A stretch of DNA of 59,578 nucleotides. It comes from Escherichia coli (GTDB taxonomy: Bacteria; Pseudomonadota; Gammaproteobacteria; Enterobacterales; Enterobacteriaceae). Location: the NCBI RefSeq assembly GCF_003334255.1, contig NZ_QOWU01000030.1, one strand, 5' to 3'. Shown piece after piece: positions 9,287-55,968 of the stretch (positions within the stretch are counted from its first letter, which is position 1; each line of letters starts with the position of its first letter). The notes beneath the pieces were generated by a model that saw only the letters and a list, made by a program, of their open reading frames with translations, did no database searches and was not told the DNA's origin. The translations under genes were made by a program, and so were the position numbers.

Positions 9287-9355
9287 TTGGATTTGTCACA
9301 ATAAATTGTGGCGGATTATCACCGCTAAATTAAGCGGATTCAAGTAACACAGGAC

Positions 9356-32400: not shown

Positions 32401-32437
32401 GAAAAACGGGTCGCCAGAAGGTGACCCGTTTTTTTTA
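32401..32437. terminator. Bidirectional intrinsic terminator shared by nupG and speC
   Basis: aaaaacgggtcgccagaaggtgacccgtttttttt; A-run and T-run on both sides of one hairpin. Confidence 0.8.
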
Positions 32438-35786: not shown

Positions 35787-35862
35787 GCCCGGATAGCTCA
35801 GTCGGTAGAGCAGGGGATTGAAAATCCCCGTGTCCTTGGTTCGATTCCGAGTCCGGGCACCA
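35787..35862 (+). tRNA. pheV: tRNA-Phe (GAA anticodon)
   Basis: 76-nt sequence gcccggatagctcagtcggtagagcaggggattgaaaatccccgtgtccttggttcgattccgagtccgggcacca with CCA end. Confidence 0.97.
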
Positions 35863-35968
35863 CCTTACATCAAAGCCACTGGTCAGGAGTGAGAACCCTG
35901 ACGGGTGTCATCGGGAAGGTGTAAGATGTCGTGAATGTCTCTCATGCCATCTCATTTTCTCGATTTAA

Positions 35969-35997
35969 GGAGCATGTTGGACGCATGCTCCTTTTCT
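35969..35997 (+). terminator. Hairpin terminator downstream of pheV
   Basis: ggagcatg…catgctcc stem followed by ttttctc. Confidence 0.5.
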
Positions 35998-36061
35998 CGA
36001 TCATTTATTATGCTTGCAAAGCTTTTTCAGGTTGTCAACAACGGCAAAACAAAGTCATGAT

Positions 36062-37057: not shown

Positions 37058-37099
37058 AATTAAACCCTTTACAAATAGGTTACATTTTTACCAAAATAC

Positions 37100-38698: not shown

Positions 38699-40199
38699 CC
38701 TTTCCCTCCACCACCTTCTCTGTGCCACTCTCATGCGGGGACGGCGTCTTCTCCGTCGTCCTGCTCTTTTCCTCAGCCAGTTGCTGCATGAGCTCATTGA
38801 GTACCAGCGTCCTGCGTGCCCGGGTAACCGCCACATACAACAGGTTAGTTTCATCCCGGCGCGCCTGTTCTGACATCAGCGGATCAGCGATATCCTGAAA
38901 ATCATCCCCCAGTACAACCCGCACCCATTCCAGTCCCTTACTGCGGTGCGCCGTTGAAACCGTGATATCAGCCTCCCGCTCGTTCGTGACTGTGTGCTCC
39001 CTGAGTAGCTCCAGTTTTTTTGGTAACGGAAAACACAGCTCCAGCAGTCGTATGGACTGATTCATCTCCACATCCTTCGTCACCTTCGCAATATGACGGT
39101 ATTCATCAAAATTCCGGTAATCCCTGCGCAACCGGTCAGAGTGCATCCGGGCCGGCATATCCATCTGGAACCAGTAAAGATCTTCAAGCGCCTCCGTTCG
39201 GTATCCCTCAATGCCCCCGACCCAGTAAACCTTCCTGCCCGCCATTGCTGCCATCAGCGCCGTGCCAATCACTCCGGCGACGGTCCGGTTCAGTACCGCC
39301 CGGTGTCCCCCAAATTTTCCACGCTTCATGCGCTCACGCATTTCCTGCATGGTAAGCACCTCATCATCACCGCCGCAGCCGCTCACCTCTCGACTTTCCC
39401 CTGCGCGTTTCAGCAGCAGATTAGCCATCGCGGCCACTGCGGGGCCAAAACGAAAACTCTGTGTCAGCCAAAGACGGTCGGCACCGGACAGAGACGGATG
39501 AGACAGGGCATCATCCGCGCCACGAAAACGGTAGATCTGCTGATACCGGTCACCGACCAGCACAATCCTGCACCGCTGTCCCAGCACAAGTGCGGAAGTC
39601 ACCGGATTCGCATCCTGCGCTTCATCAAACAGAATGGTGTCCCATCTGCGCGAGAGATCAGGTCCGGAGAGCTGAAACAATTTGAGATAGGTGTCATGGG
39701 TGACCGGAAACGTTCCATCCGGATCGCTCATTGCCTGCCAGAGCGTCCTCACAGCACGAAGTGCCTCATCCGGAGCAACTCCTTTCATTTCGTCCTTGTC
39801 CGGCAGATGCTGCCTGCCGGGGGTTGCATCCGCTGAGCAGATAAACTGATTCAGCCCTGTCATGGCCACCCGGGCCAGTGCCCAGTATCGGGTATTCAGT
39901 TTTCTTGCCACATCGGTGACGAACAAGCCCGGAACAAGCCGCTTCTGGTAATGCCTTCCGAAGCGGGCAAACGCCAGCTGATGCGACGTTTTGCATTCAA
40001 CGTTAAAAGGAAACCTGCGCTCAGCTTCATCACGAATCGCACGATTATAGGCGAGATAGAGCATCCTGCTCTCCGGGCAGGCCATGGCATAGCTGACCAG
40101 TGTGCTGGTTTTCCCTGTACCGGCAAAAGCATTAACAACAAGCTTCCTCCCCTGCCAGTGAATAATTGCCGTCTGTTCTTCTGTCGGTTTATGGGGCAT
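38691..40199 (-). CDS. Compact UvrD/Rep-like superfamily-1 DNA helicase, 502 aa
   Basis: Walker A AFAGTGKTS, motif II ILFDEAQD, motif III VGDRYQQIY, motif V TAHRSKGLEW, motif VI YVAVTRARR; GGAGG SD. Confidence 0.8.
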   Translation of the reverse strand: MPHKPTEEQTAIIHWQGRKLVVNAFAGTGKTSTLVSYAMACPESRMLYLAYNRAIRDEAERRFPFNVECKTSHQLAFARFGRHYQKRLVPGLFVTDVARKLNTRYWALARVAMTGLNQFICSADATPGRQHLPDKDEMKGVAPDEALRAVRTLWQAMSDPDGTFPVTHDTYLKLFQLSGPDLSRRWDTILFDEAQDANPVTSALVLGQRCRIVLVGDRYQQIYRFRGADDALSHPSLSGADRLWLTQSFRFGPAVAAMANLLLKRAGESREVSGCGGDDEVLTMQEMRERMKRGKFGGHRAVLNRTVAGVIGTALMAAMAGRKVYWVGGIEGYRTEALEDLYWFQMDMPARMHSDRLRRDYRNFDEYRHIAKVTKDVEMNQSIRLLELCFPLPKKLELLREHTVTNEREADITVSTAHRSKGLEWVRVVLGDDFQDIADPLMSEQARRDETNLLYVAVTRARRTLVLNELMQQLAEEKSRTTEKTPSPHESGTEKVVEGKDV

Positions 40200-40663
40200 G
40201 GCTTTCCTCCGTAAAGACGAAATTTCCGGTCACTCTGCCTTCAGCCAGGCGACCGTGACCAGCATTAATTTACCCTGGTGACCATAAAATTTTACCTCCC
40301 GTAAATTTTTAGCGACCTGAAAAGAATTAATTATCGCCACCCGGGTATCAGCTGTTCATTATCCCCTCAGACACAGCCCACAACGGGTCTGCTGTATCAC
40401 CGTTCTTCGTAACGGTCATGCTCTTTAACAATCCGGGAGCGGCCACGCCCTGAAGCCGGGCTGAGGAGGAAAACAGATATGCTACGTAGAGAGTGACGTG
40501 CCGCGCCTGCAGCCACAGGTAACACTCCCCAACATCGGACACCGCAAATAATGGCTACACAACCCGAAAACGCACTGAGCGCCAGAACAGTGCGTTTCCG
40601 GTTGTGCCGGAGCCTGCACCCTGCAGAGTCCTGAACAACATCCAGTAAAACCAGGCACTTTCG

Positions 40664-40699
40664 GCGACATCATTTTCCCCATGGTGATGTCGCTTTTTT
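40664..40699 (+). terminator. Strong intrinsic terminator in non-coding region
   Basis: 9-bp stem gcgacatca/tgatgtcgc, 12-nt loop, then tttttt; no ORF of 60 aa or more upstream on this strand. Confidence 0.65.
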
Positions 40700-40736
40700 C
40701 AGCACAGAATAATAATGCACAGCAGGAGTACAGATA

Positions 40737-40967
40737 ATGGCATCAGCACTGGCCACCCCAGCCCCGTATAAATACTGTATTCAGGCCACCATCGAAAAAC
40801 CCGGCGGTACACCGGTTTCATGGATTCGCTTCCAGAATACGCCCATGACGAAACAGGAGTGTGAAAAACTCTTCTCCACTGAAAAAGAAGCCGGTAAATC
40901 TTTCACCGTTAAAGTCGGGGTTACTCAATTTTCATGTAAGGAAAATCCACCTGCACCTGGAGAGTGA
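40737..40967 (+). CDS. Hypothetical small protein, 76 aa
   Basis: AGGAG SD 8 nt upstream of ATG; no recognisable family. Confidence 0.4.
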   Translation: MASALATPAPYKYCIQATIEKPGGTPVSWIRFQNTPMTKQECEKLFSTEKEAGKSFTVKVGVTQFSCKENPPAPGE

Positions 40968-40975
40968 TTTTTATT

Positions 40976-41170
40976 ATGCCTCATCCCATCACATATACAA
41001 ATTTTCTTCCGGTGGTTCTGTTTTTCGTTATCGTTATTTTTATTATCACTTTTATAATAGCCATCACCACGACCATCCCCGCAGATATGACTGTAAGAGG
41101 CTTTTACAATAGATACAGAAAGGATTTTCTGTCTCTTTTTTCGGCATATTTCCTTTCATCAATATTCTGA
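40976..41170 (+). CDS. Hypothetical small hydrophobic protein, about 64 aa
   Basis: Very hydrophobic N-terminal half; ATG at 40976 downstream of GGAGAG. Confidence 0.3.
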   Translation: MPHPITYTNFLPVVLFFVIVIFIITFIIAITTTIPADMTVRGFYNRYRKDFLSLFSAYFLSSIF

Positions 41171-41466
41171 GCATTCTTGGTGACAGGCACCAGTATTTCA
41201 GACAGCACGCCGGTTTTCGGTAGTACACCGGACAATGCGATTACAAACTCGCTGATTTCACTGGCGTTCTGTAATTCGTTATTAACTCACGCATGGATTT
41301 GTGATCTCTGCGACATACACAGAAACAAAAACATCTTTATTTATATAACACTGGCTTTTCTTCATCTTATTTTAATCAATTCATGCACCCATTTTATCTA
41401 CGCCACTTTTTATTAATTCAGTTAACTCCGTCTTAACAGACAGAAATAGTGAAAAAGGTGATACTG

Positions 41467-42138
41467 ATGAATATATTAAGATACTTAAGTATTTCGCTCT
41501 TCGCGTTCTCATTTTCATATACCGCCACAGCCTCCACTCAGATATCATCATCGCACAACCACGCCGAAAAACGTGCAATCGGTACGCTGAAATTTATACG
41601 GGCCGACGGACAACGACCGTTTGGTCAGGCTATGAAACAATTATTACCCACCGGCTGGCGTACTGAGATTGCCCGTGACGTCCGGCTCCCCGCCAGAATA
41701 TCATGGTCCGGAAATGACCAGTGGAACCATGTTATCGAAAAAACGCTGCCCCGCTACAGCCTGAAAGCCACATTTGATACCTCAGGGAAACGCGTACTGA
41801 TCCAGCAGGCGGAAAAAACGGTAAAATCTGGCCTGTTTTCTGCCCCCGTAACCGGTGTCAAAAAAACAGAAACACGTCATATTGAGCAGGGAATGACCCT
41901 GCGTACAGGGCTGGAAAAATGGGCAGCCGCCGAACCTTGCGCTACCGGGAAATGGAAAGTGGCATGGAAAACGCCGGTAAATTACAGTATCGATGCCCGG
42001 TTAGTTTTTTCAGGTAATTTTATGGATGCACTGAACAGTACATTCGCACTTTATCAGCAGGCTGAAAAACCCTTATATGCCTCGGTGAATAAAAACCAGT
42101 GCGTGCTGATAATTACTGACATCCCGGGGGACAGCTAA
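41467..42138 (+). CDS. Pilus-assembly accessory protein (PilL/TcpQ-like, tentative)
   Basis: Signal peptide; first gene of a block co-linear with the R64 thin-pilus operon; ATG 41467 with AGGTG SD (track starts at GTG 41449). Confidence 0.45.
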   Translation: MNILRYLSISLFAFSFSYTATASTQISSSHNHAEKRAIGTLKFIRADGQRPFGQAMKQLLPTGWRTEIARDVRLPARISWSGNDQWNHVIEKTLPRYSLKATFDTSGKRVLIQQAEKTVKSGLFSAPVTGVKKTETRHIEQGMTLRTGLEKWAAAEPCATGKWKVAWKTPVNYSIDARLVFSGNFMDALNSTFALYQQAEKPLYASVNKNQCVLIITDIPGDS

Positions 42139-42573
42139 ATGGGATGGCTCATGCCCCTCATAATGGCACTGTTTATCATCGGGAACTGGTTTCATGCCGG
42201 CAATACGGAGCGGGCAATAAAAAATACTGATGAGCAGCAAAGACAACAACAGGCATATGAAATATTACGCCTGACAAATGCCATTAATGACTGGAAATAT
42301 CATCATCCCGGTGATATCCGTGAAGGAAAGATGCTTACGGTTAACGAAACCGGATTCGCTCCGGTATACGGAACAAAACATATTATTTCAGGGCAAAGAA
42401 CTTTTGTCTGGCTTCCTTTTCAGCCAGGGCTGATATCAGCCCTGAATGAAGTGAGCCGAAACTCAGCATTAATTGCGCAGGTCAGGGACAGAAAGTTACT
42501 GGATAACCAAGGAAATAATATTGGTGTTCCGCCTTCCGTTATACCGGAAAATGCGATCGTCCTGATCAATTAA
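42139..42573 (+). CDS. PilM-like small membrane-associated protein (tentative), 144 aa
   Basis: N-terminal hydrophobic segment; size and position match R64 pilM. Confidence 0.4.
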   Translation: MGWLMPLIMALFIIGNWFHAGNTERAIKNTDEQQRQQQAYEILRLTNAINDWKYHHPGDIREGKMLTVNETGFAPVYGTKHIISGQRTFVWLPFQPGLISALNEVSRNSALIAQVRDRKLLDNQGNNIGVPPSVIPENAIVLIN

Positions 42574-42781
42574 GCATCCCCAAAAGGGGATTCTGCACTG
42601 AGGTCTGCATATCATGTCTTCTCTCAGCAACATGATATATCGCTACGGCGCAGACTTCAGTCCGGAAAATCTTTCTCAGTGTTCATTAACACATGAAATA
42701 CCCGTCGCTCTGTCTCACTGAATTGTTATTTCGTCCCTCCACAGACAGAGAATAAATATTCAACAAGCAGGTATACAGAAT

Positions 42782-44383
42782 ATGAAAAAATTTTTCTGCG
42801 CTGTCACCGCCTTATCCGTTGTTTTATCAGGCTGCAGCAGTTTTGAACGAATCAGTGCCACAGAAAAAAAAGCATCCGATGAGATAACACGGGCTGAACG
42901 TATAGCCGGTGAACTTCGCAAACAACGCGCCGTTGTGCGCGAAACAAACCAGCAGTGGATCAATACCACGCCCCTTCCGGAAAAAACCGTTACCCGGGCA
43001 ATACCGGATTGCCCGGTCGTCATAAACACCCGGGAAGCCATCACACTTCACCAGATTGCACAGCGGATTTCTGAAACCTGTCATATTCCGGTTCAAATCA
43101 TGTCTGATGTCTGGACACTGCTGGGTACCGGAGAAAATCGCACACAGAGGATCAGCGGCGACATTCCCCCGCCTGATACCAGTGGCATGCAGCCACTGAG
43201 CACCGTGGGGCTGTCATCAGCCGCCCCCTCCACGGCCTCACTGCCGGAACTCAATGTTCAGGGGCTGCCCGCTTTGCTTGACACCGTATCTTCACGCTTT
43301 GGGATCACCTGGCGCTATGTGAAGGGAAAAATTGAATTCCACTGGCTTGACACCCGTACATTCCCGGTCACCTACATGGACAGCCAGGTCGCCTACAATG
43401 CCAGAGTCGTCAGTGGCACCATGTCATCCACGGGCAGTTCCGGTGGTTCATCCGGCAGTTCCCTGAGTGGTGATGCCAGCAATACGCAGACAACCGCGGT
43501 TGATATGAAATCCACACTCTATGAAGACACAAAAAATGCCGTGAATTCCATGCTGACGCCCGGTATCGGAAGGATGGTGTTGTCCACCGGCTTTCTGACC
43601 GTAACCGACACACCACAGGTTCTGGATACTGTTAAGAATTTTATGGAAGAACGTAACCGGGAAATGCGCCGTCAGGTTGTGCTGAATATTGAAATCCTGA
43701 GCATCAAAAAAACCAGCAAAGAGCAGGCCGGAATCGACTGGAACGCCGTTTTCAGTGACGGACATCTCGGTATAGACCTGACCAGTGCATTTACTAATGC
43801 CGCCGATGAAGTCGTGACCAGTGGGGTATCGATTATTGACGGTAAGCTCACCGGTTCAAAAGCGTTTCTGAAAGCGCTTTCATCACAGGGTAAAGTCAGT
43901 GTGGTCACCCAAAACTCGGCTGTCACCAAAAACCTGACGCCGGTTCCTATGCAGGTCGCCAACCAGCAGGGGTACATAGAAAGTGTCACCACGGATACGA
44001 CGGCCAATGTGGGCTCCTCCACCTCACTGAATGCGGCAACAATCACCACCGGCTTCAACATGACACTGTTACCGTTTATCCAGCCCGGCTCACACCGGTT
44101 GCAGTTACTGTTCAGCATGAGCCTGTCCGACAAACCTGTTTTTGAAGTGTTTGAAAGCGGTGGCAGTCGGGCCCAGACACCGAGTGTTGAGCTGAAAACC
44201 ATCAACCAGACCATCGACCTGAAATCAGATCAGACTGTGATCCTGAGCGGATTCCAACAGTTCAGCCGGAAATCGCTCAGACAGGGCGTGGGCACCCCGT
44301 CATTCTTCGGACTCGGTGGTGGCGTGGACAGTGCAGATGACGACACCATTCTGGTTGTGCTGATCACACCGCACGTAATCTGA
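42782..44383 (+). CDS. pilN: Secretin-type outer-membrane lipoprotein (PilN-like), 533 aa
   Basis: Lipobox VLSGCSS; Ser/Gly-rich linker; secretin-like C-terminus (…DDDTILVVLITPHVI). Confidence 0.7.
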   Translation: MKKFFCAVTALSVVLSGCSSFERISATEKKASDEITRAERIAGELRKQRAVVRETNQQWINTTPLPEKTVTRAIPDCPVVINTREAITLHQIAQRISETCHIPVQIMSDVWTLLGTGENRTQRISGDIPPPDTSGMQPLSTVGLSSAAPSTASLPELNVQGLPALLDTVSSRFGITWRYVKGKIEFHWLDTRTFPVTYMDSQVAYNARVVSGTMSSTGSSGGSSGSSLSGDASNTQTTAVDMKSTLYEDTKNAVNSMLTPGIGRMVLSTGFLTVTDTPQVLDTVKNFMEERNREMRRQVVLNIEILSIKKTSKEQAGIDWNAVFSDGHLGIDLTSAFTNAADEVVTSGVSIIDGKLTGSKAFLKALSSQGKVSVVTQNSAVTKNLTPVPMQVANQQGYIESVTTDTTANVGSSTSLNAATITTGFNMTLLPFIQPGSHRLQLLFSMSLSDKPVFEVFESGGSRAQTPSVELKTINQTIDLKSDQTVILSGFQQFSRKSLRQGVGTPSFFGLGGGVDSADDDTILVVLITPHVI

Positions 44384-44394
44384 CGGAGGTTCCC

Positions 44395-45693
44395 TTGAAC
44401 GGGTCAATGCAGAAAAAAATTCGTCCAGTGTCACTGATATCGGGTAAACAGGCATTCCTTGCGGGCCTTGACTGGAAAAACATGCCTCCCGGTTACCGGA
44501 ATGCCCGGCGGTTTGCACAGTCACAGGGCGCAGAACTGTATCTTTCCTGCCACAACCACGACGGTGAAAACGGTGATGAAATGATGATTGCCCTGCTCAG
44601 TCGTCAGGATGCAGATATCCCCCGTAACATTCGCCAGTGCCTGTCACTGGCGATGTTAATACGCCCGCTCCTCAAATCAGGTGGGTATGCCATTTTCATC
44701 ATCGAGAACGACGACGCTGAACTCACCTGTGCGTTTGTATCGGTGATTAATGGCATTCTGGTTAACGACGTTACCGGTACCCCGACTGAAATCACGGAAG
44801 CCCGCAACACGTTCCTGATGCTCAATGCGGAACCGGAAAACGGCTGGGTACGCTACGAACCTGACGGTTTTTCACCAGACAGTCGGTGTATCCCGCTACC
44901 GCTGTCAAACCTGATCAGCACCAGAAAGCATCCGGCAGAAGCGCGTCTGCTCCCCGTGTCCAGAGGCCCACAGTTAATGACAGCCTTACTCATCATCACG
45001 CTGCTTGGCGCATCGTGGTACGGCTGGCAACGTTATGAAATCTGGCAGGCGGAAAAAGCGGAACGTGAAGAAAGCGCCCGGAAATCAGCTGAAGCACGTA
45101 TAACGCCACCATGGACGGGGCAGCCTGAGACCGGAGAATTTATCCGGCAATGCAGCACAACATGGAACCAGACGCCACTGTCTGCTGCCGGATGGCGTTA
45201 TACCCTGGCTGAATGTTCTTCTGACGGTAACAGCGGTAATCTGCGGTCTTCATACACCAATACAGCAGGCACGACAGTGACAGCCTTCATCCGGCGCATC
45301 ACTGAACTCACAGACACCCGGCCGTTTATTGTTATGCCTGAAGGGAACTCTGGCGGCGTTGCACTGCCGGTCACATTCCGGCTCCCAGATAATCCTGTCC
45401 CGGTTGATTCCCTTCCGGAAACCCGAGACCTGCAGGAACGACTGACCACGCTCGCACAGTCAGTTCAACTGCAGATTGACTGGCAGGAAGTCAATAACAG
45501 CTTCACTGATGAAAACGGAAACATCATCCAGCCACCGTGGAAAGAGTATGACCTGCAGATACAGACGCTACTCCCAGCTAACCAGCTGGCAGAGCGCTTC
45601 AGCGAGCCATCTGTCCGTTTTCTCTCCGTCACTAGACAACTGGAAAATGGTCGTTTCCGTTATCAGTTCACAGGTAAATATTATGCACGATAA
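44395..45693 (+). CDS. pilO: PilO-like pilus assembly protein, 432 aa
   Basis: Position and size match R64 pilO; TTG start 5 nt after GGAGG (or ATG at 44407); single TM segment. Confidence 0.55.
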   Translation: MNGSMQKKIRPVSLISGKQAFLAGLDWKNMPPGYRNARRFAQSQGAELYLSCHNHDGENGDEMMIALLSRQDADIPRNIRQCLSLAMLIRPLLKSGGYAIFIIENDDAELTCAFVSVINGILVNDVTGTPTEITEARNTFLMLNAEPENGWVRYEPDGFSPDSRCIPLPLSNLISTRKHPAEARLLPVSRGPQLMTALLIITLLGASWYGWQRYEIWQAEKAEREESARKSAEARITPPWTGQPETGEFIRQCSTTWNQTPLSAAGWRYTLAECSSDGNSGNLRSSYTNTAGTTVTAFIRRITELTDTRPFIVMPEGNSGGVALPVTFRLPDNPVPVDSLPETRDLQERLTTLAQSVQLQIDWQEVNNSFTDENGNIIQPPWKEYDLQIQTLLPANQLAERFSEPSVRFLSVTRQLENGRFRYQFTGKYYAR

Positions 45694-46144
45694 AACAAAA
45701 GCGCTGCTGATTGCAGCCCTGCTGTTACCGGCAATGGCGGTGGCCGGCAACGAAAATGACGCGCCGCAGAACAAACAACTGCAGATTGAGCAGATTCAGG
45801 AAGAAACCGCCCTGTATGAAGCGATGCTGGCAAGAGAAAAAATTCGTCATGAATTGCGGACACTGGAACAGGGTATCTCCCCGGTTTCCGGTTCTGTCAC
45901 GGGACATCAGCCGGAAAATGCGGCTGGCACCTCCTCCGGTTCACAGGCATTATCATCCCCCCGTCTGAAAGAAATCTTTGGTATTCAGCCACAGCTTTCA
46001 GCACGCGTCATACTCCCCGGAGGAACTGAAACTGATGTCAGGGCCGGACAGGCATTACCCGGCACGCTGTTCATGGTGGAACAAATCACACCGGAAAGTG
46101 TGATTCTGGAATACAACGGCAACAAGCAGACGCTACGCCCGTGA
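45683..46144 (+). CDS. pilP: PilP-like periplasmic protein, 153 aa
   Basis: Start MHDKTKALLIAALLLPAMAVA overlapping pilO stop by 11 nt; track ORF over-extended. Confidence 0.55.
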   Translation: MHDKTKALLIAALLLPAMAVAGNENDAPQNKQLQIEQIQEETALYEAMLAREKIRHELRTLEQGISPVSGSVTGHQPENAAGTSSGSQALSSPRLKEIFGIQPQLSARVILPGGTETDVRAGQALPGTLFMVEQITPESVILEYNGNKQTLRP

Positions 46145-46153
46145 GGTGCCATC

Positions 46154-47674
46154 ATGCCAGAGACTATCGTACTGCCTCCTGAAGATATTCGTGATTTCGT
46201 CGCAATTCAGCATGACGCTGACGGAAAAATCAGGGTGAAAGTCGTCGAAGCGAAGAAGCACATCACCTCTGTACAACGTTACCTGACGCTCTTACGCTCC
46301 CGCTATCCGGAAAAAATCAGCAAATTCGATTTTACCACTCTTGACGTTATCGCAGCCCTGAACAGCAATAATACGGAACGTGCACCGGGCGTTTTATCCG
46401 ACGGAGGGATCAACACAGTACAAAGAAAAGTTCTTGATTACATCAGAAAAGCCGCTCAACTGAATGCCTCAGATCTGCATATCACACCAGGACGCGACAA
46501 CACGGACTTCACCTATGTGGAAGCCCGGGTTCACGGCGAACTGGAAGTGCTCGATATCCTCCGGAAAGAAGAAGGCCTCGAATTACTGGGGGCCACCTAT
46601 TCCGGCATGACCGACGTCATCAAGGGCACACAGTTTGATCCCGGGGTGCCTCAGGATGCGCGTCTTTCAGAACAGTACCTGAAACTGGCAGGTCTGTTTG
46701 GTGCACGCTACTCCCACTACCCCTGTGTGGGCGGTCTCTATGCCGTGCTCCGGCTGATCAAGGATGACAGCCAGCAAATCCCGACCTTCAGTATGCTGGG
46801 CTACCACCCTGAGCAGGAGCGCACCCTGCGACGTATTCTGCAACGTCCTGAAGGCATTATCACACTCTCAGGCCCCACCGGCTCAGGAAAATCCACCACG
46901 CTGAGAACCGCCTCTGCGGCATACCTTGAACAGTACGGCTTCAACAACACCGGCGGTATTCTTCTTCCCCGTCGCAGGCTGTTCACCATTGAATCCCCAC
47001 CGGAAGGGCGTATTCCCGGTGCCATTCAGACCGCCGTCATGGATACCGCGCAGGGCTGGGTGGACTCCATCAAATCAGCGTTGCGTCTTGATCCTGACGG
47101 GATCCTGAACGGTGAAATCCGCGACCACGATTCCGCTATTACGGCGATAAAAGCCGCCATGACCGGGCATCTGATGCTGACCACCATCCATGCGAACGAC
47201 CCGATTAATATCCTCGAACGCCTTGAGATGGAAGGCGTTCAGACTAGGATGATCGCCGACCCACAGTTGTTCATCGGCCTGCTGAGCCAGCGTCTGGTTC
47301 AGCTGATATGTCCGCACTGCCGTCGCCCCTGGCATGAGGTGGCCACCGGACGCACGGATGATGAACGGCACCTAGTGGAAGGCTTCTGTAACCCGGACCA
47401 GGTGTATCTGAGAAATCATGAAGGCTGCCCACACTGCTGGCGTGGCGTGACGGGGCGAACGGTTATCGCAGAAGTCATCTCCCCGGATGCCCGTTTTTTC
47501 CAGTTGTACCGGGAAAAGGGCCGTATTGAGGCTAAAACCTACTGGCACAGAGAACTGGGCGGAATGACCCGAAATCAGCATCTCCAGGGAAAAATCAACA
47601 GCGGACAGGTTGATCCGCTAGCGGCCCATTACATCTCTCCCATCGACGAGGACAGCTATACGCTGTTGCACTGA
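46154..47674 (+). CDS. pilQ: Type IV pilus assembly ATPase (GspE/PilB family), 506 aa
   Basis: Walker A LSGPTGSGKSTTL, Asp box, His box (TIHANDP), tetracysteine motif (CPHC…CPHC). Confidence 0.85.
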   Translation: MPETIVLPPEDIRDFVAIQHDADGKIRVKVVEAKKHITSVQRYLTLLRSRYPEKISKFDFTTLDVIAALNSNNTERAPGVLSDGGINTVQRKVLDYIRKAAQLNASDLHITPGRDNTDFTYVEARVHGELEVLDILRKEEGLELLGATYSGMTDVIKGTQFDPGVPQDARLSEQYLKLAGLFGARYSHYPCVGGLYAVLRLIKDDSQQIPTFSMLGYHPEQERTLRRILQRPEGIITLSGPTGSGKSTTLRTASAAYLEQYGFNNTGGILLPRRRLFTIESPPEGRIPGAIQTAVMDTAQGWVDSIKSALRLDPDGILNGEIRDHDSAITAIKAAMTGHLMLTTIHANDPINILERLEMEGVQTRMIADPQLFIGLLSQRLVQLICPHCRRPWHEVATGRTDDERHLVEGFCNPDQVYLRNHEGCPHCWRGVTGRTVIAEVISPDARFFQLYREKGRIEAKTYWHRELGGMTRNQHLQGKINSGQVDPLAAHYISPIDEDSYTLLH

Positions 47675-47675
47675 C

Positions 47676-48776
47676 ATGAGATTTCTGGAAAAACTCAACA
47701 ACACCGACATTGAGCTGACAGCACTGACCGTCTGGATAGCCAGAAAAATCTTTGCCCTGAACCGGGTGGAGTTCTACGAATCCCTGGGCGGCATGATACG
47801 TGACGGGACCCCGTCACTGCGTGCACTCGAATTTCTCTGCAATGTCGAAACTGACTTCGGAACCCGGAAAGGGACATCAGGCATGTATTTTCTGGCGAAG
47901 GAATGCATCGCGTCCATTAAATCCAGCGGCATGTTATCCGGTGCTCTGCCCACCTGGGTGCCGCCGGAAGAAGCCACGCTCATTCGGAACGGGGAAGAGC
48001 GCGGGAATATTGCCGACGCGCTTTTCCAGGTGGCCAGAACCGTTAAGGCACGGCGGGAAATGACATCCAGCCTCATTGCCGTCTGCCTCTACCCCCTTCT
48101 GCTGCTTTCGCTCTGTGTGGTGAATATGTACAACGCCCATACCCGTATTGTCCCCATCGTCAGTGCGTTTGCTGCAGAAGATAAATGGTCATTCCAGATG
48201 AAAGTGCTGGCTGGCATGTCGGAGTTTTTCATCGGGTACGGATTCTGGCTCTGCGGGGCCAGTTTCACCCTGACTGTTCTGATCCGTTTTTCATTCAGCC
48301 GGTATACCGGCCCCGGCAGGAGGATGCTGGACAGGATTCCCCCCTGGTCACTGTATCAGACCTTACACGGGGTGAATTATCTGTTCAGTATTTCATCCAT
48401 GTTGCAGATCAATATTCCTCTTTCGCAGGCGCTGCTCCGAATGGAAAAAGGGGCAGAAAATAATAAATGGTTAAAGGAGAGAATTCAGGCAATAAGAAAA
48501 CATGTATTATCCGGTCAGAATCTGGCCACGGCAATGCGAAATTCCGGTTACGATTTCCCGTCCAGAATATGTATCAATAAACTGCTCCTGAATTCCGAAA
48601 GGGAGGACAGTGTGGCAGCCATGGCGCTCTATGCCGATCAGTGGCTGGAGGAAGCAAAAAAACGGGTAAAACGAATTGGATTAATTATTACCGGTATATC
48701 AGGAGGTTTTGTCTTCTTTTTTATTCTTAACATGATATCTGCCATCTACAGTATCAGCGACATGCTGAAGCAATAA
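47676..48776 (+). CDS. pilR: Type IV pilus inner-membrane platform protein (GspF/PilC family), 366 aa
   Basis: Polytopic membrane protein directly after the ATPase, 1-nt gap. Confidence 0.75.
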   Translation: MRFLEKLNNTDIELTALTVWIARKIFALNRVEFYESLGGMIRDGTPSLRALEFLCNVETDFGTRKGTSGMYFLAKECIASIKSSGMLSGALPTWVPPEEATLIRNGEERGNIADALFQVARTVKARREMTSSLIAVCLYPLLLLSLCVVNMYNAHTRIVPIVSAFAAEDKWSFQMKVLAGMSEFFIGYGFWLCGASFTLTVLIRFSFSRYTGPGRRMLDRIPPWSLYQTLHGVNYLFSISSMLQINIPLSQALLRMEKGAENNKWLKERIQAIRKHVLSGQNLATAMRNSGYDFPSRICINKLLLNSEREDSVAAMALYADQWLEEAKKRVKRIGLIITGISGGFVFFFILNMISAIYSISDMLKQ

Positions 48777-48827
48777 TCCCCGCCATACAGAATATTTCTT
48801 AAATATCCCATACACCAGGAGTGACAT

Positions 48828-49364
48828 ATGAACTTCAGAGCACGTATTTTTTATTACTTTTCTTTAAAAAAAGAGAAAGAGGAGGATAAAGGTTTAACAT
48901 TACTGGAAATTGCCGGCGCACTAATTATCATCGGTATTGTGGTTGCTCTCGCAATGAGTCAGATGTCCAGCACAATGGCATCCAGTGACAACCAGCGAGA
49001 ACTGAAAAACCTGCAGACCATTGCAACCAAAATGAAGCAGTACAAGTTCCAGGGCAGATATACCGGCACGGATTATATCAAAACCCTGACGGAAAGCGGA
49101 TCCCTGCCGGCTGATATGATTGCCGGAGGCAACAAAGCCAAAAACGCATGGGGAGGCGATGTCACCATTGCAACAACAAGTAATAAATACGGTTATATTA
49201 TAACCAGCAAAGCCGTGCCAAAAGAAAACTGTGTTGAACTGATTAACAGCCTGCGCAGTTCATCCATGTTCACAAAAATCAAAGGCCAGACACCTGCCAG
49301 TGTGGATCCGGTAACTGTATGTTCTGCCGCCACAAACGATATAACGCTCGAAACCAGCAGTTAA
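48828..49364 (+). CDS. pilS: Type IVb major prepilin, 178 aa
   Basis: Long leader then …KGLTLLEIAGALIIIGIVVALA (pilin processing motif, Glu+5); AGGAG SD. Confidence 0.75.
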   Translation: MNFRARIFYYFSLKKEKEEDKGLTLLEIAGALIIIGIVVALAMSQMSSTMASSDNQRELKNLQTIATKMKQYKFQGRYTGTDYIKTLTESGSLPADMIAGGNKAKNAWGGDVTIATTSNKYGYIITSKAVPKENCVELINSLRSSSMFTKIKGQTPASVDPVTVCSAATNDITLETSS

Positions 49365-49376
49365 TATCCTGACACA

Positions 49377-49399
49377 GCGCCCCCCCCGGGGCGCTTTTT
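49377..49399 (+). terminator. Intra-operon intrinsic terminator after major pilin gene
   Basis: gcgcccc/ggggcgc stem, cccc loop, ttttt tail, 13 nt after pilS stop. Confidence 0.6.
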
Positions 49400-49414
49400 C
49401 CGGAGCACATCCGC

Positions 49415-49897
49415 ATGAAATGGTTATTTCTTTCTGTCGTGATTTTTCCGTTATCTTTCACCCTTCCGGCTGAAGCTACCGCCACAAACACATTACTGGA
49501 CAGTTGCTTTATTCAGGCCGGGAAACGCTATCTGATTGCCCCTGAGCTTCTTAAAACCATTGCACAGCAGGAAAGCAGCCTGGTCGCCACCGCGATAAAT
49601 CACAATAAAAACAAATCCGGAAAAATCATCAGTACGGATTACGGGATTATGCAGATTAATTCAGTACATATTCCTGAGCTGAAAAAACTGGGGGTCATTA
49701 AAGATAAAAATGAACTGCTTAATAATCCCTGCCTGAATATTCAGACCGGTGCCTGGATACTGGCCCGCCATTTTCAACGCTGCGGCGTTAACTGGGAATG
49801 CCTTGGCAGCTATAACGCCGGATTCAGCAAAAATAACACAGCCCGGCGCATGATATATGCCCGAAAAATCCACAACCGGTATTTCAGAAAAGATTAA
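49415..49897 (+). CDS. pilT: Soluble lytic transglycosylase-domain protein, 160 aa
   Basis: Signal peptide; SLT motifs (…IAQQESSL…, …YGIMQINSVH…). Confidence 0.8.
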   Translation: MKWLFLSVVIFPLSFTLPAEATATNTLLDSCFIQAGKRYLIAPELLKTIAQQESSLVATAINHNKNKSGKIISTDYGIMQINSVHIPELKKLGVIKDKNELLNNPCLNIQTGAWILARHFQRCGVNWECLGSYNAGFSKNNTARRMIYARKIHNRYFRKD

Positions 49898-49907
49898 TTA
49901 ATACGAG

Positions 49908-50564
49908 GTGACGGTGAGCGCATTACTGAGCATGGCAATAATAATCATCATCCTGGCGGTTATTCTTTATCTTGCATACAGCACCGCCGCCATCTATCTG
50001 TCAGCAGTACACGACACCCGGCCACCAAAGCCGGTGGTGTACATATGTTGTCTTCTGGCCATAGTGAGTGTCAGTCTCAACGGCGCATATGGTGTTGAGG
50101 CCACGGGGCTGTTATTCCTTTCCATTCTGACGGGATTATTAACTGTAATGACGCTGACGGATATTGCTGTCTGTCGGCTTCCCCGGATATTCACGCTTTC
50201 TCTTATTATTCTGGGCGCAGCGTTCAGATACAGCCAGGACTCACTGACTCATGCCCTGCTCAACGCGTCACTGTGGTTCGGCATGATATACCTGTTACGA
50301 CGCATTTTTCTGGCAGCGAAAGGGACGGAAGCGCTCGGCCTTGGTGATGTGTTCCTGATTGCGGGGATCGCAATGTGGACGCAACCGCAACACACTCCAC
50401 TGATAATCACCGCCGCAGCCTCCGGAGCATTTCTGTTTATCCTCATTTTCTGCCGTCGCAGATGCCAGTTAGCGCTGCCGTTTGCCCCGTTTCTCTGCGC
50501 GTCCCTGTATGTGCTGACCCTCTTCCCTGATTCCGTTATCCACACATCGGAGATATTCACGTGA
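49908..50564 (+). CDS. pilU: Prepilin peptidase (A24 family), 218 aa
   Basis: Polytopic membrane protein with LGLGDVFLIAG motif; start codon uncertain (GTG 49908 / GTG 49914 / ATG 49932). Confidence 0.7.
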   Translation: MTVSALLSMAIIIIILAVILYLAYSTAAIYLSAVHDTRPPKPVVYICCLLAIVSVSLNGAYGVEATGLLFLSILTGLLTVMTLTDIAVCRLPRIFTLSLIILGAAFRYSQDSLTHALLNASLWFGMIYLLRRIFLAAKGTEALGLGDVFLIAGIAMWTQPQHTPLIITAAASGAFLFILIFCRRRCQLALPFAPFLCASLYVLTLFPDSVIHTSEIFT

Positions 50565-51850
50565 AAAAATTCAGACACGATGACGATAAAGGTTTTATTC
50601 TGCTTGAGGTTCTGGCGGGACTGATAGTGATTGGTATTGCCACACCAATGATTTATTCAGAAATTGAAGACTGGCTGAATGAACAACTTTATCAAAGTGC
50701 GGCTTTACATGCTGATGAATATAATAATGCAATAAAAAATTATGTGGCTGATAAAACCAGCTCACTCTCCAGTAAAACTATCACGGTAAATGAATTAATT
50801 CAGCAGGGATATCTGAACAACGGTTTTTCCCGCTCCCCCTTTGGACAAAGCTATATTACCGGTATCAGAAAAAATAATTTATCCGGTCGTCTGGAAGCAC
50901 TTACCTGCACAACCGGAGGACAGGATATTAAAGAAGATGGGTTACGTCGCATAGCGGGCCAGATTAATGGACTCGGTGGTTTTATGCTCCAGAATAATTC
51001 CGTTACAGGTTCCTTTGGCGGCTGGACCGATCTGGGAAGTAATTATCAGATTACCTGCAACAAGGGGCATATCGCCATGCGAATGGCAGGAAAAGATCTG
51101 GAGGAAAGCGATCGGCTGTACCGCTACAGCGTTCCGGGAAGACCCGATTTAAACAGAATGCATACTGGCATTGATATGAATAATAACAGCATCACCAATA
51201 TCAATGAAGCCAGTGGTAAAAACGCCAGATTTTCAGGCGATGTCACATCAAATCGTTGGTTACATCCAAATGGTGGCGGCTTCACCATGACGGACAGCCA
51301 GTGGATACGTGCTGTTAACAACAAAGGGATCACAACCGAAGGAGAGCTCAAAGGAGGAAAAGTCAGTGGTGGAACTGTCCGGTCTGAGGGGCGTCTTTCC
51401 ACGGGTGAGTATTTACAGCTGGATAAAACAGCTACTGCAGACACTTTCTGCTCACCAGACGGACTTGTAGGCCGCGACAGCAAAGGAGCAATACTTTCGT
51501 GCCAATCCGGTGCCTGGCGAACGATTGGTGCGCCTGACGGAAGTTACAGCAATTTGGGTTCTCACAGGGGAACATTTAACGGGAGAAATAACGGCAGAGG
51601 AACTTTGTTTGTGTACGCTTCCGGTGGAAATAGTGCCGGTGGCGGTGATTGCGCCAACACATCAAATCTTCAGGGCTATGTGAACGGCGCTTTCATTGGT
51701 ATGAATGCCAGCAATAACCCCTCCTACGGAAAGACGGCATTTATTTCATTTGCCGTGCCAGTGGGAGCGTCATATCAAATCATCTCCAGACCAACACAAA
51801 ATTACGCCTGTGGTAACGGTGTTTTCTCTTTGTATGCCTATCAGATGTGA
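50561..51850 (+). CDS. pilV: Minor pilin/adhesin PilV with shufflon-encoded C-terminus (current isoform), 429 aa
   Basis: Prepilin N-terminus …KGFILLEVLAGLIVIG; GTG start overlapping pilU stop; sfx repeat in frame as S-C-Q-S-G-A-W at 51499-51517. Confidence 0.75.
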   Translation: MKKFRHDDDKGFILLEVLAGLIVIGIATPMIYSEIEDWLNEQLYQSAALHADEYNNAIKNYVADKTSSLSSKTITVNELIQQGYLNNGFSRSPFGQSYITGIRKNNLSGRLEALTCTTGGQDIKEDGLRRIAGQINGLGGFMLQNNSVTGSFGGWTDLGSNYQITCNKGHIAMRMAGKDLEESDRLYRYSVPGRPDLNRMHTGIDMNNNSITNINEASGKNARFSGDVTSNRWLHPNGGGFTMTDSQWIRAVNNKGITTEGELKGGKVSGGTVRSEGRLSTGEYLQLDKTATADTFCSPDGLVGRDSKGAILSCQSGAWRTIGAPDGSYSNLGSHRGTFNGRNNGRGTLFVYASGGNSAGGGDCANTSNLQGYVNGAFIGMNASNNPSYGKTAFISFAVPVGASYQIISRPTQNYACGNGVFSLYAYQM

Positions 51851-52822
51851 GTCCCTAGCTGGCTTTAACAATGTAGTTAAATGCAATGTTTTTGGGACGC
51901 ATTTCTGTGGTACTCCCCTGTGCCCAGTATGGCATACCACTATGATGCCCTTTCAGCCATCCGCCACGTTCGTGATAGACGCCTGATTGATCGGCCTGAT
52001 AACTCAGGAGCTGTCTGTTCTGATCACCATCAAGTCCCTTCCCGTTATCCCAGCCACGGATAAAAACACCGCGCAGATCGGGCAATTTACAGCCAGGATA
52101 AGCACGGGCAAGCTGAGGATACCGGGAACAGGAAAACGACTGGCCGTCCATCAACAGATAGCCTTGTGGAGGAGTGGCAGATGGCCACGGGATAGGGCTT
52201 CCCACAGGGTAGGATTCAAAGCCACCCCACACACCGGATTGGCACTGGCCTCCGTGCCAATCCGGTTCGTGGAAAAATGCAGGAAAAGGCGATATTGAAA
52301 TCGTCAAAGTAACAGCATCAAAACTCCGCTGGCCTGGTGCTACTGCCACCTGCCCAATGGGTAAGAAGGTGATCGGGGGTGGTGCAGAATGCAGCTCTGG
52401 AATTGGCTTTATCTGGCTTGTCCGTTCAATACCTGTAAACAATAATGCCTGGTATGGCTATTGCGATACGACAGAACACATCATTGGAAAAATAACTGTA
52501 CATGCCATTTGCCAATGACAAAGTGATTTACTGGCAAACCACAATGTAACTACATTTCCCCGTCAGGTCGTTCCTGTTTGTACCGCCGTGAAAATTGTAT
52601 TCATCGTAGTAACCACACTTCACAATCCTGTTCGAATCATATGTCGCAACAGAACCTGCGAAGTAATTTGGCTTCCAGCCATGCGGGTTCTCAGCATTGC
52701 TGACGCTCCAGGTACACTGGCTGGCAGAAAAACCAGACGGCAAAGGTAGTCGTTCTCCATTCGCGATTTTTCCTGTCAGAACAGTGCTACCTGATACCCT
52801 AATCCACGAACCGGATTGGCAC
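51499..52822. other. Shufflon: two invertible segments bounded by four 19-bp sfx repeats, four alternative pilV 3' exons
   Basis: sfx1 51499-51517 gtgccaatccggtgcctgg (+); sfx2 52227-52245 (-, rc gtgccaatccggtgtgtgg); sfx3 52254-52272 gtgccaatccggttcgtgg (+); sfx4 52804-52822 (-); open frames continue in-frame from each repeat: A 51518-51850 (+), A' 51855-52226 (-), B 52273-52518 (+), B' 52528-52803 (-). Confidence 0.8.
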
Positions 52823-52884
52823 GGCGATATTGCATTTCCGTTTCACTATTCCTACCTTCCCCGTTTTTATCGTGGAAGGCCGAT

Positions 52885-54054
52885 ATGTTTCGAAAAATCA
52901 AAATTCGCAAAATGACTCTCAACCGGGCGCTGGACAAATACCTGAAAACCGTTTCCGTCCATAAAAAAGGTCATCTGCAGGAGTTTTATCGCGTCAATGT
53001 GATTAAACGTCACCCTATGGCCGATCGCTATATGGATGAAATCACGACCGTTGATATCGCCGGTTACCGGGATCAGCGTTTGGCTCAAATTAACCCACGA
53101 ACAGGGCGTCAAATCACCGGAAATACCGTCCGTCTTGAACTTGCCCTTTTATCATCATTATTCAATATCGCCCGTGTGGAATGGGGAACATGCCGTATGA
53201 ATCCTGTTGAACTGGTCCGAAAACCGAAAATCAGTAATGGCCGCGACCGCCGACTGACTTCTGGTGAAGAACGCCGCCTTTCCCGCTATTTCAGGGACAA
53301 AAATCCGCAGCTCTACGTTATCTTCCATCTGGCTCTGGAAACAGCAATGCGCCAGGGAGAAATTCTCTCATTACGCTGGGAACACCTCGATTTGCAGCAC
53401 GGCGTGGCGCATCTTCCTGAAACGAAAAATGGCTCACCACGCGACGTACCACTCTCCCGGAAAGCACGTAACTACCTGCAAATTCTGCCACAACAGATAA
53501 ACGGCAATGTGTTCAGTTACACCTCGTCCGGTTTCAAAAGCGCCTGGCGTACCGCTCTTCTGGATCTGAAAATAGAAAATCTGCATTTTCACGATCTCCG
53601 CCATGAGGCCATCAGCCGTCTGTTCGAGCTCGGCACACTGAACGTTATGGAGATTGCAGCCATTTCCGGTCACCGCTCCCTGAACATGTTGAAACGGTAC
53701 ACACATCTCCGGGCATATCACCTGGTCAGTAAACTCGATGCAAGGCGTAAACAGACCAGCAAAATTTCCCCTTATTTTGTTCCCTACCCAGCAACTGTCA
53801 GAAACAGAAACGGAGTGTTCATTGTGACACTGCACGATTTCGACCTTGAAAGCCGTGCTGACACCCGGGAACTGGCAATATCTCACGCCAGCGTATTGTT
53901 GCTGCGCGCACTGGCCCAGGCTGCTCAGCGGGGTGAACGCGTCCCCACACCAGGCGAGCTACCCGCAAACATTGATGAACGGGTCATGATTTGTCCGTTA
54001 ACAAACAGCCAGTTCATGACAAAAGCGAACAGTATTTTCATATCCTCCTCCTGA
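52885..54054 (+). CDS. rci: Shufflon-specific tyrosine recombinase (Rci-like), 389 aa
   Basis: Motifs [10 protein letters not shown] and [13 protein letters not shown]; GGAAGG SD; immediately downstream of sfx4. Confidence 0.8.
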
Positions 54055-54083
54055 ACAAATAATTTTTGTTCAAAATTAACGCT

Positions 54084-54386
54084 ATGAGACCCTTTATGAA
54101 ACACTTATCCTCCCGTGCAGCCACTGCGGATAATAATCGTATCGTTACAATTGAAGACGTTTACACAATCGCATTCTCGCAACCAATTCACACCGAATCA
54201 GCGTTGGGGCAAAGGTGGATGTTGATCCATACTGGTGAATATGAAAGTGCCAGCGATGCAAAACGCTTCCTTGATACGCTCGTCACCGGGCACTGTGCTT
54301 GCATGGTAACACCATCACCTGTTCTGGATCATGACACCTGGCTGCGTATCCGCCTGCTGATGGGCGAGATAAGGGATGCCAAATAA
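54084..54386 (+). CDS. Hypothetical protein, about 100 aa
   Basis: ORF only; start uncertain (TTG 54066 or ATG 54084). Confidence 0.35.
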   Translation: MRPFMKHLSSRAATADNNRIVTIEDVYTIAFSQPIHTESALGQRWMLIHTGEYESASDAKRFLDTLVTGHCACMVTPSPVLDHDTWLRIRLLMGEIRDAK

Positions 54387-54477
54387 ACATTCATGGCCCC
54401 AACGCATAAAAATAACGACGGGGACTCTGGCAGTGGTACCATTCTTTTTACATAGAGCCAATATATAAACAACTTTT

Positions 54478-54798
54478 CTATGATAATATCTTTATCATGT
54501 TATAAATAATTGTCCCCTCAGCAGAAAGGGCCCAAATAGAAAAAGCAAAAATCCTTATAAAAATATTCTTTACAAGCGTTCCTATATACAAACAAACTAT
54601 ATAAACCAGCCAGAACAGAATGACTGCAAAAGAAACACACACGGCCCCCATAAAAATAAATGTCATCGAATCCCATGGTTTCACCAGTACAACCGGAACC
54701 ATGGCTGCCAGAACAATAAGAGCAGCATTACCCAACAGCGTCTCTCGAATAATATCCCTTATAATCTCCAGTTTTTCTTTATGCTGTTTAATTTTCAT
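54478..54798 (-). CDS. Hypothetical small membrane protein, 106 aa
   Basis: Two predicted TM helices; in an AT-rich stretch. Confidence 0.4.
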   Translation of the reverse strand: MKIKQHKEKLEIIRDIIRETLLGNAALIVLAAMVPVVLVKPWDSMTFIFMGAVCVSFAVILFWLVYIVCLYIGTLVKNIFIRIFAFSIWALSAEGTIIYNMIKILS

Positions 54799-55057
54799 AT
54801 GAACCTCATTGATTTCATCCCGAAAAGGAAAAGATTATATAACGAAATACTTTCAATCTCCTGACTCCGTCTGCTCTGCAGCATAATGCCAGACCAGCGG
54901 CATGCTAAATCACGTCCTGTCCGAATCCTTTTCATTCACGCTTAAAACAGAGTTAAAAGCACTCTTGAAACACACTCGATCATAACGATCGAAATAACTC
55001 GTTTCCGTTCAGTAAACACGCTCTTTAGACTTAACATATGAACCGCACGGAGGTGAA

Positions 55058-55879
55058 ATGAAACCCAACAGCACAGGCATTGCTGCCCGCATGATGCTCT
55101 CCATTGACAGGGTCCGGATTTGCGAAGCTCTGCTCAATAACCGCCAGTTGCAGTCCACTCCTCTGCAGATCCGTTATCCGCAGGGTGTCAGAGAAGCACT
55201 CGGAATAATGAGCGAGCAACTCTCCCTTTCTGTATCCGACCTGACGCGTATCCTGGTCGAAGATGCATTAACTGAAATGTTTCTCCCGGCTGAAAACATC
55301 GTTCACCGTCTTATCTGCCGGACAGAACACATCATGCAGGCACATGATGTCTGCGTAACAACGATGACAACGTTACTGGCTCCCTGGAATATCCGTCCTG
55401 CCGTTTTCCGTGACCCGGACAAACTCGCAGATTATCTGACAGGAGAGATTCTGACTGCTCTGGCTGACTGGTTTTATCTCAACCCGGAATGGCTGAACGG
55501 CAGGGTACGTTATCCTTTAAGCCGTGCCGGTGAGTGGCCAGCAACACAGGATGCGTTCTGCCAGCTTATTTCAGCCAGCGATAATGTGGATATTATTATC
55601 TGGCACAGTTTTCCTTTTGCCGGTGTTCATTCACAGGAATATTGCGGTGTACTGTTCCGCAAGAAAAAAGAAATTAATAAAGCCATCATTTATCCTGTAC
55701 TTTCTTTATCACCTGTAAGAATGAATAAGGAAAAAGAAAACTGGTTTCACACTGCCCGCAATTTATATGCAAAGACATCCGTCCGGACCGTAACGCTTCG
55801 TCCGGCACAGGCAGAATATCTGATGATAGGAAAAATATTACCTGCTGAGTTATTCAGTATACCGTTATTACCCTGGTAA
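55058..55879 (+). CDS. Hypothetical protein, 273 aa
   Basis: GGAGG SD 7 nt upstream; no recognisable catalytic motif. Confidence 0.5.
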   Translation: MKPNSTGIAARMMLSIDRVRICEALLNNRQLQSTPLQIRYPQGVREALGIMSEQLSLSVSDLTRILVEDALTEMFLPAENIVHRLICRTEHIMQAHDVCVTTMTTLLAPWNIRPAVFRDPDKLADYLTGEILTALADWFYLNPEWLNGRVRYPLSRAGEWPATQDAFCQLISASDNVDIIIWHSFPFAGVHSQEYCGVLFRKKKEINKAIIYPVLSLSPVRMNKEKENWFHTARNLYAKTSVRTVTLRPAQAEYLMIGKILPAELFSIPLLPW

Positions 55880-55968
55880 TAACGCAGAGAAAAAACCAGT
55901 AAATTTTTAATGGCACAGTCGTGTCATACCGTTGCTGTACCCAAAACACCTCAAACCAGGAAACTGAA

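Follow-up and report, generated by a model that had tools for sequence, protein, structure and literature searches.

In the tcp operon of Vibrio cholerae a rho-independent site lies at the 3' end of tcpA, and this site has been described as permitting transcription of tcpA above that of tcpB and other genes (PMC5207764). The pap operon of uropathogenic E. coli combines partial termination between papA and papH with RNase E-dependent stabilisation of papA mRNA (PMC6524683). In the Clostridium cip-cel operon, subunit stoichiometry is set by stem-loops that close off the 3' end of the most abundant cistron (PMC4423207), and for ABC-importer operons of Clostridia internal terminators that set the stoichiometry of the subunits have been described (PMC9045158). 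The stability of the clostridial hairpins correlates with the transcript ratio, and the hairpins have been gained and replaced in the course of evolution (PMC4423207 and PMC9045158). Here we describe a hairpin that follows pilS, the major prepilin gene of an R64-type pil operon in E. coli, and compare it with these systems.

The DNA analyzed here, referred to as the window, is a stretch of 59,578 nucleotides from E. coli, in which the pil operon is carried by a genomic island that has tRNA-Phe (35787-35862) as its insertion site. The beginning of the island (35787-40199) contains an integrase gene (36062-37057, minus strand) and genes for a conjugative nickase/helicase and a UvrD-like helicase, and the region 3' of the pil operon comprises the shufflon, an Rci-like recombinase and traF. 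The segment around the pilS-pilT junction (48700-49950) shares 100% identity with the chromosome of E. coli STEC2018-553 (NZ_CP075665.1); the identity is 99.4-99.9% with three further E. coli chromosomes, and with I-complex plasmids it ranges from 98% to about 70%. Over 39700-58950 (19.25 kb) the differences from NZ_CP075665.1 amount to one base plus those across the shufflon; of the 901 mismatches all but one fall within 51513-52802. The shufflon has four sfx-like 19-bp repeats (GTGCCAATCCGGTnnnTGG) within 51500-52822, and its segment 52254-52822 is inverted in place with respect to NZ_CP075665.1. Given the inverted segment and the clustering of the mismatches, the shufflon appears to be actively rearranging. 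Upstream of tRNA-Phe the window consists of E. coli core genome (from the D-glucosaminate PTS, speB and metK, via nupG and speC, to yqgA). Two very strong hairpins in this part, at 32401-32434 (between the convergent nupG and speC) and at 9253-9287 (speB-speA region), are flanked by A-runs/T-runs on both strands and look like bidirectional terminators.

The pil genes of the island are arranged in the order TcpQ-family gene (in the position of pilL), pilM, pilN, pilO, pilP, pilQ, pilR, pilS, pilT, pilU and pilV. In the R64 nomenclature pilS encodes the major prepilin, pilT a lytic transglycosylase, pilU a prepilin peptidase and pilV the shufflon-tipped adhesin. On the identical 1251-nt stretch (48700-49950) RefSeq annotates a type 4 pilus major pilin, followed downstream by a lytic transglycosylase, a prepilin peptidase and the shufflon adhesin PilV, and the precomputed Pfam data place the PilS domain (PF08805) in a PilS protein that is 99% identical to ours. 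NCBIfam gave no match for PilS, PilU and PilV, and only sub-threshold matches for other pil proteins (e.g. 124 bits for pilT against the IagB model, below its cut-off of 208); the gene identities therefore rest on RefSeq and precomputed Pfam. The features discussed below are collected in Table 1.

Table 1. Features of the pilS-pilT junction and its surroundings, in window coordinates.
Feature	Coordinates	Strand	Basis
pilR-pilS spacer, 51 nt, A/U-rich, no hairpin	48777..48827	+	sequence, folding
pilS, major type IVb prepilin, 178 aa	48828..49364	+	ORF list; RefSeq; Pfam of relative
pilS stop codon TAA	49362-49364	+	sequence
12-nt spacer, stop codon to hairpin (ATATCCTGACAC plus A49376)	49365..49376	+	sequence
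Candidate terminator hairpin	49377..49394	+	sequence, folding, scans, relatives
Hairpin 5' arm, GCGCCCC	49377-49383	+	sequence
Hairpin loop, CCCC	49384-49387	+	sequence
Hairpin 3' arm, GGGGCGC	49388-49394	+	sequence
U-tract, T5, then CC	49395..49399	+	sequence
pilT Shine-Dalgarno GGAG, 9 nt before ATG	49402..49405	+	sequence
pilT (R64 sense), lytic transglycosylase; first gene dependent on read-through	49415..49897	+	ORF list, RefSeq
pilU, prepilin peptidase (A24 family); ORF 49908-50564	49914..50564	+	RefSeq annotation
pilV, shufflon-tipped minor pilin/adhesin, 3' end varying with shufflon arrangement	50561..51850	+	ORF list, RefSeq, sfx-like repeats
sfx-like repeats	51500-51517; 52227-52245 (inverted); 52254-52272; 52804-52822 (inverted)		

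An earlier note on the window had placed a G+C-rich hairpin with a T5 tail at 49377-49399, 13 nt after the pilS stop and ahead of pilT, pilU and pilV. Inspection of the sequence bears this out: the coordinates are correct, the TTTTT run is real, and the distance is right when counted to the first base of the hairpin, which is 13 nt past the last base of the stop; the gene names agree with the R64 nomenclature according to the RefSeq annotation and Pfam. The stem comprises seven perfect base pairs, all of them G:C, or eight if A49376:T49395 is counted, and with its short (4-nt) loop it conforms to the G+C-rich stem-loops of intrinsic terminators (~5-14 bp). The U-tract abuts the stem directly on its 3' side, as it does in such terminators, and it is present on the sense strand only; its five U fall short of the typical 7-9 nt, with CCGG coming next, and both this shortness and the absence of an upstream A-tract weigh against the terminator reading. 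The hairpin lies downstream of the pilS stop codon and on the same strand, i.e. in the position expected of a terminator, and the 12-nt spacer would be just long enough to keep the stopping ribosome off the stem.

Judging from its sequence, this hairpin is probably a Rho-independent terminator that is leaky, lies within the operon at the end of pilS and also caps the pilS message. According to this model, RNA polymerase that has started at the promoter of the pil operon would transcribe pilS, then the G:C hairpin and then the U5 tract, where some of the polymerases would release transcripts ending at ~49397-49401, and the stable 3' hairpin on the released pilS RNA would slow down 3'-to-5' exonucleases. 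The remaining polymerases would continue into pilT, pilU and pilV. The outcome would be a pilS message in excess of that for the transglycosylase, the peptidase and the tip adhesin, in keeping with the large number of pilin subunits that each pilus requires.

RNAfold assigns the 18-nt hairpin an energy of -14.6 kcal/mol (-16.2 kcal/mol with the A:U closing pair), and in a 66-nt context the z-score is -3.46, with 1 of 200 dinucleotide shuffles folding as well. A strict scan of both strands of the 59.6-kb window (a stem of 7 or more perfect bp with 6 or more G:C, a loop of 3-8, and 4 or more T among the 5 positions that follow) returned three sites, namely those of metK, ansB and pilS, all of them directly 3' of a stop codon and in sense orientation, while 0.13 +/- 0.39 sites per window are expected according to 60 dinucleotide-preserving shuffles. 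In a broader scan ranked by energy, the pilS site was the sole strong hairpin with a T-tail on the plus strand within the pil operon. The pilS-pilT site was absent from the list produced by a consensus terminator scan of the window, probably because maximal extension of the stem via A49376:T49395 leaves four T in the tail window. A score of the d'Aubenton-Carafa type, which is approximate in that it combines ViennaRNA energies with our own division into stem and tail, is +28 for the window hairpin; the same rough score gives +36 for the E. coli reference trp t, and -25 for rrnB T1 with this tail definition.

The same sequence could be read as a DNA-level site, e.g. for a dimeric regulator, or as a neutral or chance inverted repeat without a function in RNA, considering that GCGCCCC and GGGGCGC form a perfect inverted repeat in the duplex and that both strands fold. 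The minus strand, however, has no T-run, and TGTGTCAGG comes next instead, so that the terminator signal is unidirectional. Against a DNA site or a chance repeat there are the restriction of the T-run to the sense side, the chance expectation of ~0.13 per window, the lack of similarity to the REP-like hairpins of the window, and the lack of an Rfam match (in a search of 40000-59578 at E-values up to 1 nothing matched at the hairpin, as expected for a terminator). The variation among related plasmids, described below, also argues against it, and we regard this possibility as very remote. A REP/BIME element was considered as well and rejected: the window contains one copy of the hairpin, which does not resemble the REP-like hairpins at 19439 and 23886 and has no match in Rfam. 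These two REP-like palindromes (19439-19470 and 23886-23917, GTCTGATAAGACGCG...CGTCGCATCAGAC) are nearly identical to each other and intergenic, and they lie near the transposase gene of IS621 (IS110 family, ~18314-19294).

The arrangement of the operon sets limits on where transcription of the downstream genes can begin. From pilN on, the genes overlap or are separated by at most 24 nt (pilN-pilO 11-24 nt, depending on the start codon; pilO-pilP overlapping; pilP-pilQ 9 nt; pilQ-pilR 1 nt; pilT-pilU 10-16 nt; pilU-pilV overlapping by 4 nt), except around pilS, which has 51 nt before it and 50 nt after it. Only 15 nt lie between the T-tract and the pilT ATG, which is too short for a promoter, so that polymerases can reach pilT, pilU and pilV only by way of the hairpin. 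The promoter-like matches nearby are all located upstream of the hairpin, one over the pilS start and the other in the 5' part of pilS. Thus the hairpin stands between the gene of the major subunit and genes of the same unit that have no promoter of their own, as would be expected of a leaky terminator. Genetic work on R64 by Yoshida and Komano, and by Sakai and Komano in 2002 (the latter as cited in PMC5013300), reportedly found pilT, pilU and pilV to be needed for a working thin pilus; hence the hairpin, if it terminates at all, terminates only partly. In plasmid pESI, the NusG-like TraB and FNR affect pilS, pilT and pilV in the same way (PMC5013300), as expected for one transcription unit. 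No gene for a TraB/NusG-like antiterminator, of the kind found in IncI plasmids, is annotated beside the pil genes in the window.

For the pil2 operon of PAPI-1, a second putative promoter has been proposed upstream of pilS2 (PMC8565334). By analogy, we considered that pilS of the island might have a promoter of its own in the spacer that separates it from pilR and dismissed this, as the spacer contains no sigma-70 match of at least 9/12. Speculatively, the spacer may hold an RNase E processing site or, as proposed for pilS2, a weak pilS promoter.

To compare the junction among relatives, pilS-to-pilT spacers were taken from six I-complex lineages and each of them was folded. The distance from the pilS stop to the pilT start is 44-66 nt across the I-complex plasmids. 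A G+C-rich hairpin that begins ~8-22 nt past the pilS stop is present at the junction in all six lineages, and a U-tract in four of them only. In the window lineage the arms are AGCGCCCC and GGGGCGCT, with the loop CCCC and the tail TTTT. The IncI1/I-gamma lineage has the arms AGCGCCC and GGGCGCT, the loop GCCC and the tail TTATTT, and the pO113 type has the arms ACAGCACTCC and GGGGTGCTGT, the loop CTCC and the tail TTCCC. In the sixth lineage, the IncB/O/K-like plasmids (93% identical), the hairpin is that of the window except that the C-run is C6 or CCCTCC and the tail T4, while the T5 tail is found in the chromosomal islands and in the plasmids that are 98% identical. IncK2/Z has a 12-bp stem (GACAGCATCCTT.../...AGGATGCTGTC) with no T-run, and IncI2 has the arms GGATAAGCGCC and GGCGCTTAT, the loop TTCG and the tail TTTTTCC. 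All these plasmid hairpins occupy the same junction in the same orientation as that of the window, which is distinguished by its C8, the strongest stem and the T5 tail.

By their sequences the hairpins of the window, the pO113 type and IncI1/I-gamma are clearly homologous. In the pO113 type the fourth pair is changed from G:C to A:U, a compensatory replacement, and C:G has become U:G in the sixth (the compensatory pair was identified by eye in the folded sequences; in a MAFFT alignment the 5' arm of the pO113 type was misplaced); compared to the window, its stem is 2 bp longer at the expense of the T-run, of which three T are left after the stem. IncK2/Z and IncI2 have unrelated hairpins at the same place despite alignable flanking coding DNA, which in IncK2/Z is 86-90% identical to the window, with BLAST alignments that break exactly at the spacer. 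The exchange of different hairpins at the same spot, together with the compensatory change that keeps the pairing in the pO113 type, indicates that it is the structure rather than the sequence that is under selection, which argues against a DNA-level site. The rough terminator score is +28 for the window, +18 for its C6 allele, +12 for IncI2, and +8 both for IncI1/I-gamma and for the plasmids with T4; it falls below zero in the pO113 type (-21) and IncK2/Z (-54), which have no usable U-tract. A scan of genome contigs with the PilS alignment yielded three loci, all from lineages already sampled, and a word-based protein search with PilS retrieved close relatives only.

More distant members of the family were collected by an exhaustive HMMER profile search with the PilS alignment, which gave 246 representatives at E-values up to 1e-10, and eight distant loci, all with pilQ-pilR-pilS-type contexts, were examined. 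A strong hairpin (-13.8 to -25.1 kcal/mol) is found 3' of the last pilin gene in five of the eight; three of these have a clear T-tail, and two (L024 and L028) combine a strong hairpin with a weak tail. No hairpin follows the pilin gene in the other three, two of which have spacers of 8 and 13 nt. A strong hairpin was found in none of the pilR-pilS spacers, the best one having an energy of -9.1 kcal/mol. As read from these loci, the post-pilin hairpin is common but not universal in the PilS-type pilus family. With two I-complex lineages devoid of a usable U-tract and three of the eight distant loci devoid of a hairpin, termination is no universal requirement of this family of pili. One metagenomic contig (L031:1182-3046, Logan SRR30731305) contains three tandem PilS-family pilin genes after a T2SSF gene, with a canonical A/T-rich terminator after the last gene only.

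This pattern of conservation bears on another explanation, namely that the hairpin is mainly a stabiliser of mRNA 3' ends: the full pil transcript would be cut by endonucleases in the spacers and the pilS segment would outlive the rest, as the hairpin would block PNPase and RNase II, with the same outcome of excess pilS mRNA. What is conserved across the lineages is the hairpin and not the U-tract (there is no T-run in IncK2/Z and only TTT in pO113), strong hairpins with weak tails recur in L024 and L028, and pilS is set between two spacers of ~50 nt, the upstream one of which is A/U-rich and unstructured. There are precedents too, as the intra-operon stem-loops of Clostridium, mostly without U-runs, set transcript ratios (PMC4423207), and papA mRNA is likewise stabilised following cleavage by RNase E (PMC6524683). 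On the other hand, a pure stabiliser has no need of the U5 that directly follows the window hairpin, and clear T-tails are present also in IncI2, IncI1/I-gamma and three distant loci. We consider stabilisation as the main function unlikely, albeit a serious contender. Termination and stabilisation of the 3' end are compatible and not mutually exclusive; with the hairpin as the conserved feature and the U-tract missing in two lineages, 3'-end stabilisation may be the function that is shared, while for the window, with its U5 tail, termination is a more economical explanation than stabilisation alone.

The folding of read-through RNA brings in a further possibility, in which the hairpin region would chiefly lower translation of pilT by pairing with its Shine-Dalgarno sequence, independently of termination. 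The pairing partners would be an outer helix UCC.UG/CC.GGA, in which UCC.UG comes immediately 3' of the pilS stop, or else a local CGGA/UCCG hairpin. The minimum free energy structure indeed adds an outer helix that includes the GGA of the Shine-Dalgarno sequence, and in an uncontrolled calculation with a 130-nt context the predicted pairing probability of this sequence is 0.9-1.0 in all seven junction sequences (six lineages, with the window lineage represented by both its C8 and C6 alleles). Short purine-rich Shine-Dalgarno sequences are, however, often predicted to be paired, the partners differ from lineage to lineage, and the outer helix is not predicted in IncI1/I-gamma. As a primary function this is decidedly improbable; the predicted occlusion of the pilT Shine-Dalgarno sequence would be at most an add-on to termination, and the folding predictions only weakly suggest even that. 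At this site one island copy (L037) has CCAGAG in place of CCGGAG.

The run of C at 49380-49387, which forms the loop and the upper stem, differs in length among islands that share at least 99% identity. C8 is found in the window and in one independent assembly (L036, GCA_047801655.1), C6 in six chromosomal or contig copies (L003, L022, L034, L035, L037 and L039) and in plasmids, and CCCTCC in two plasmids. C7 occurs only in CP027340, in which pilR is frameshifted, so it may be a homopolymer sequencing error. The C8 form has seven G:C pairs and a 4-nt loop (-14.6 kcal/mol) and the C6 form six pairs (-11.2 kcal/mol), a gap in predicted stability of ~3.4 kcal/mol. According to these folding energies, there is real allelic variation in predicted terminator strength, and the C6 and C8 alleles, by altering the stability of the hairpin, might slightly shift the ratio of pilS to downstream message. 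A bolder proposal, that the C-tract is a slippage-prone rheostat for the heritable retuning of read-through from pilS into pilT, pilU and pilV, seems to us improbable; if true, gain or loss of C would shift the stem between six and seven G:C pairs and change the loop size, and thereby retune the ratio of pilin to machinery and the level of piliation. A phase-variable homopolymer of a contingency locus would be ~8 nt or longer, vary in length among near-identical strains and switch expression; the C-tract is seen to vary between assemblies, with an effect on predicted hairpin stability.

The proposal of the earlier note, a partial terminator that keeps the major pilin transcript in excess over the downstream genes, holds up insofar as the anatomy, orientation, position, conservation and leakiness logic all fit, whereas termination itself, its efficiency and the pilS excess are what we infer from them. 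We found no transcript mapping of R64-type pil operons in the literature, and no paper that describes a terminator after an R64-type pilS; this search covered literature other than the original R64 papers, in which a prior mention is possible. If confirmed, the leaky terminator would explain how a large excess of pilin message can arise from a gene that is ninth in its operon, without a second promoter, and would make the pilS-pilT spacer a small swappable tuning element for thin-pilus expression, both on the I-complex resistance plasmids and on the related chromosomal islands of Shiga-toxin-producing E. coli. It is useful for annotation and for the reading of transcriptomes. It is an ordinary regulatory device of an already known kind, and it leaves current understanding unchanged, because the same device has already been described for tcpA and papA.

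Among the known systems, the tcpA site resembles the pilS element in that it follows directly after the gene of a major type IVb pilin and lies ahead of the genes for minor pilin and for assembly in that operon. Unlike tcpA, which is near the 5' end of its operon, pilS is approximately ninth, after the assembly genes pilL to pilR; the two elements show no sequence similarity, and the pilS element is known from sequence alone. The papA-papH site is likewise a leaky stop after the gene of a major subunit, and at papA it lowers the downstream transcripts. The pap operon, however, encodes an unrelated, chaperone-usher class of pilus and has a mapped RNase E cut between papB and papA; we know of no RNase E-type cut at pilR-pilS. 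The stem-loops of Clostridia, finally, are mostly without U-runs and act after processing, whereas the pilS element has a canonical U-tract.
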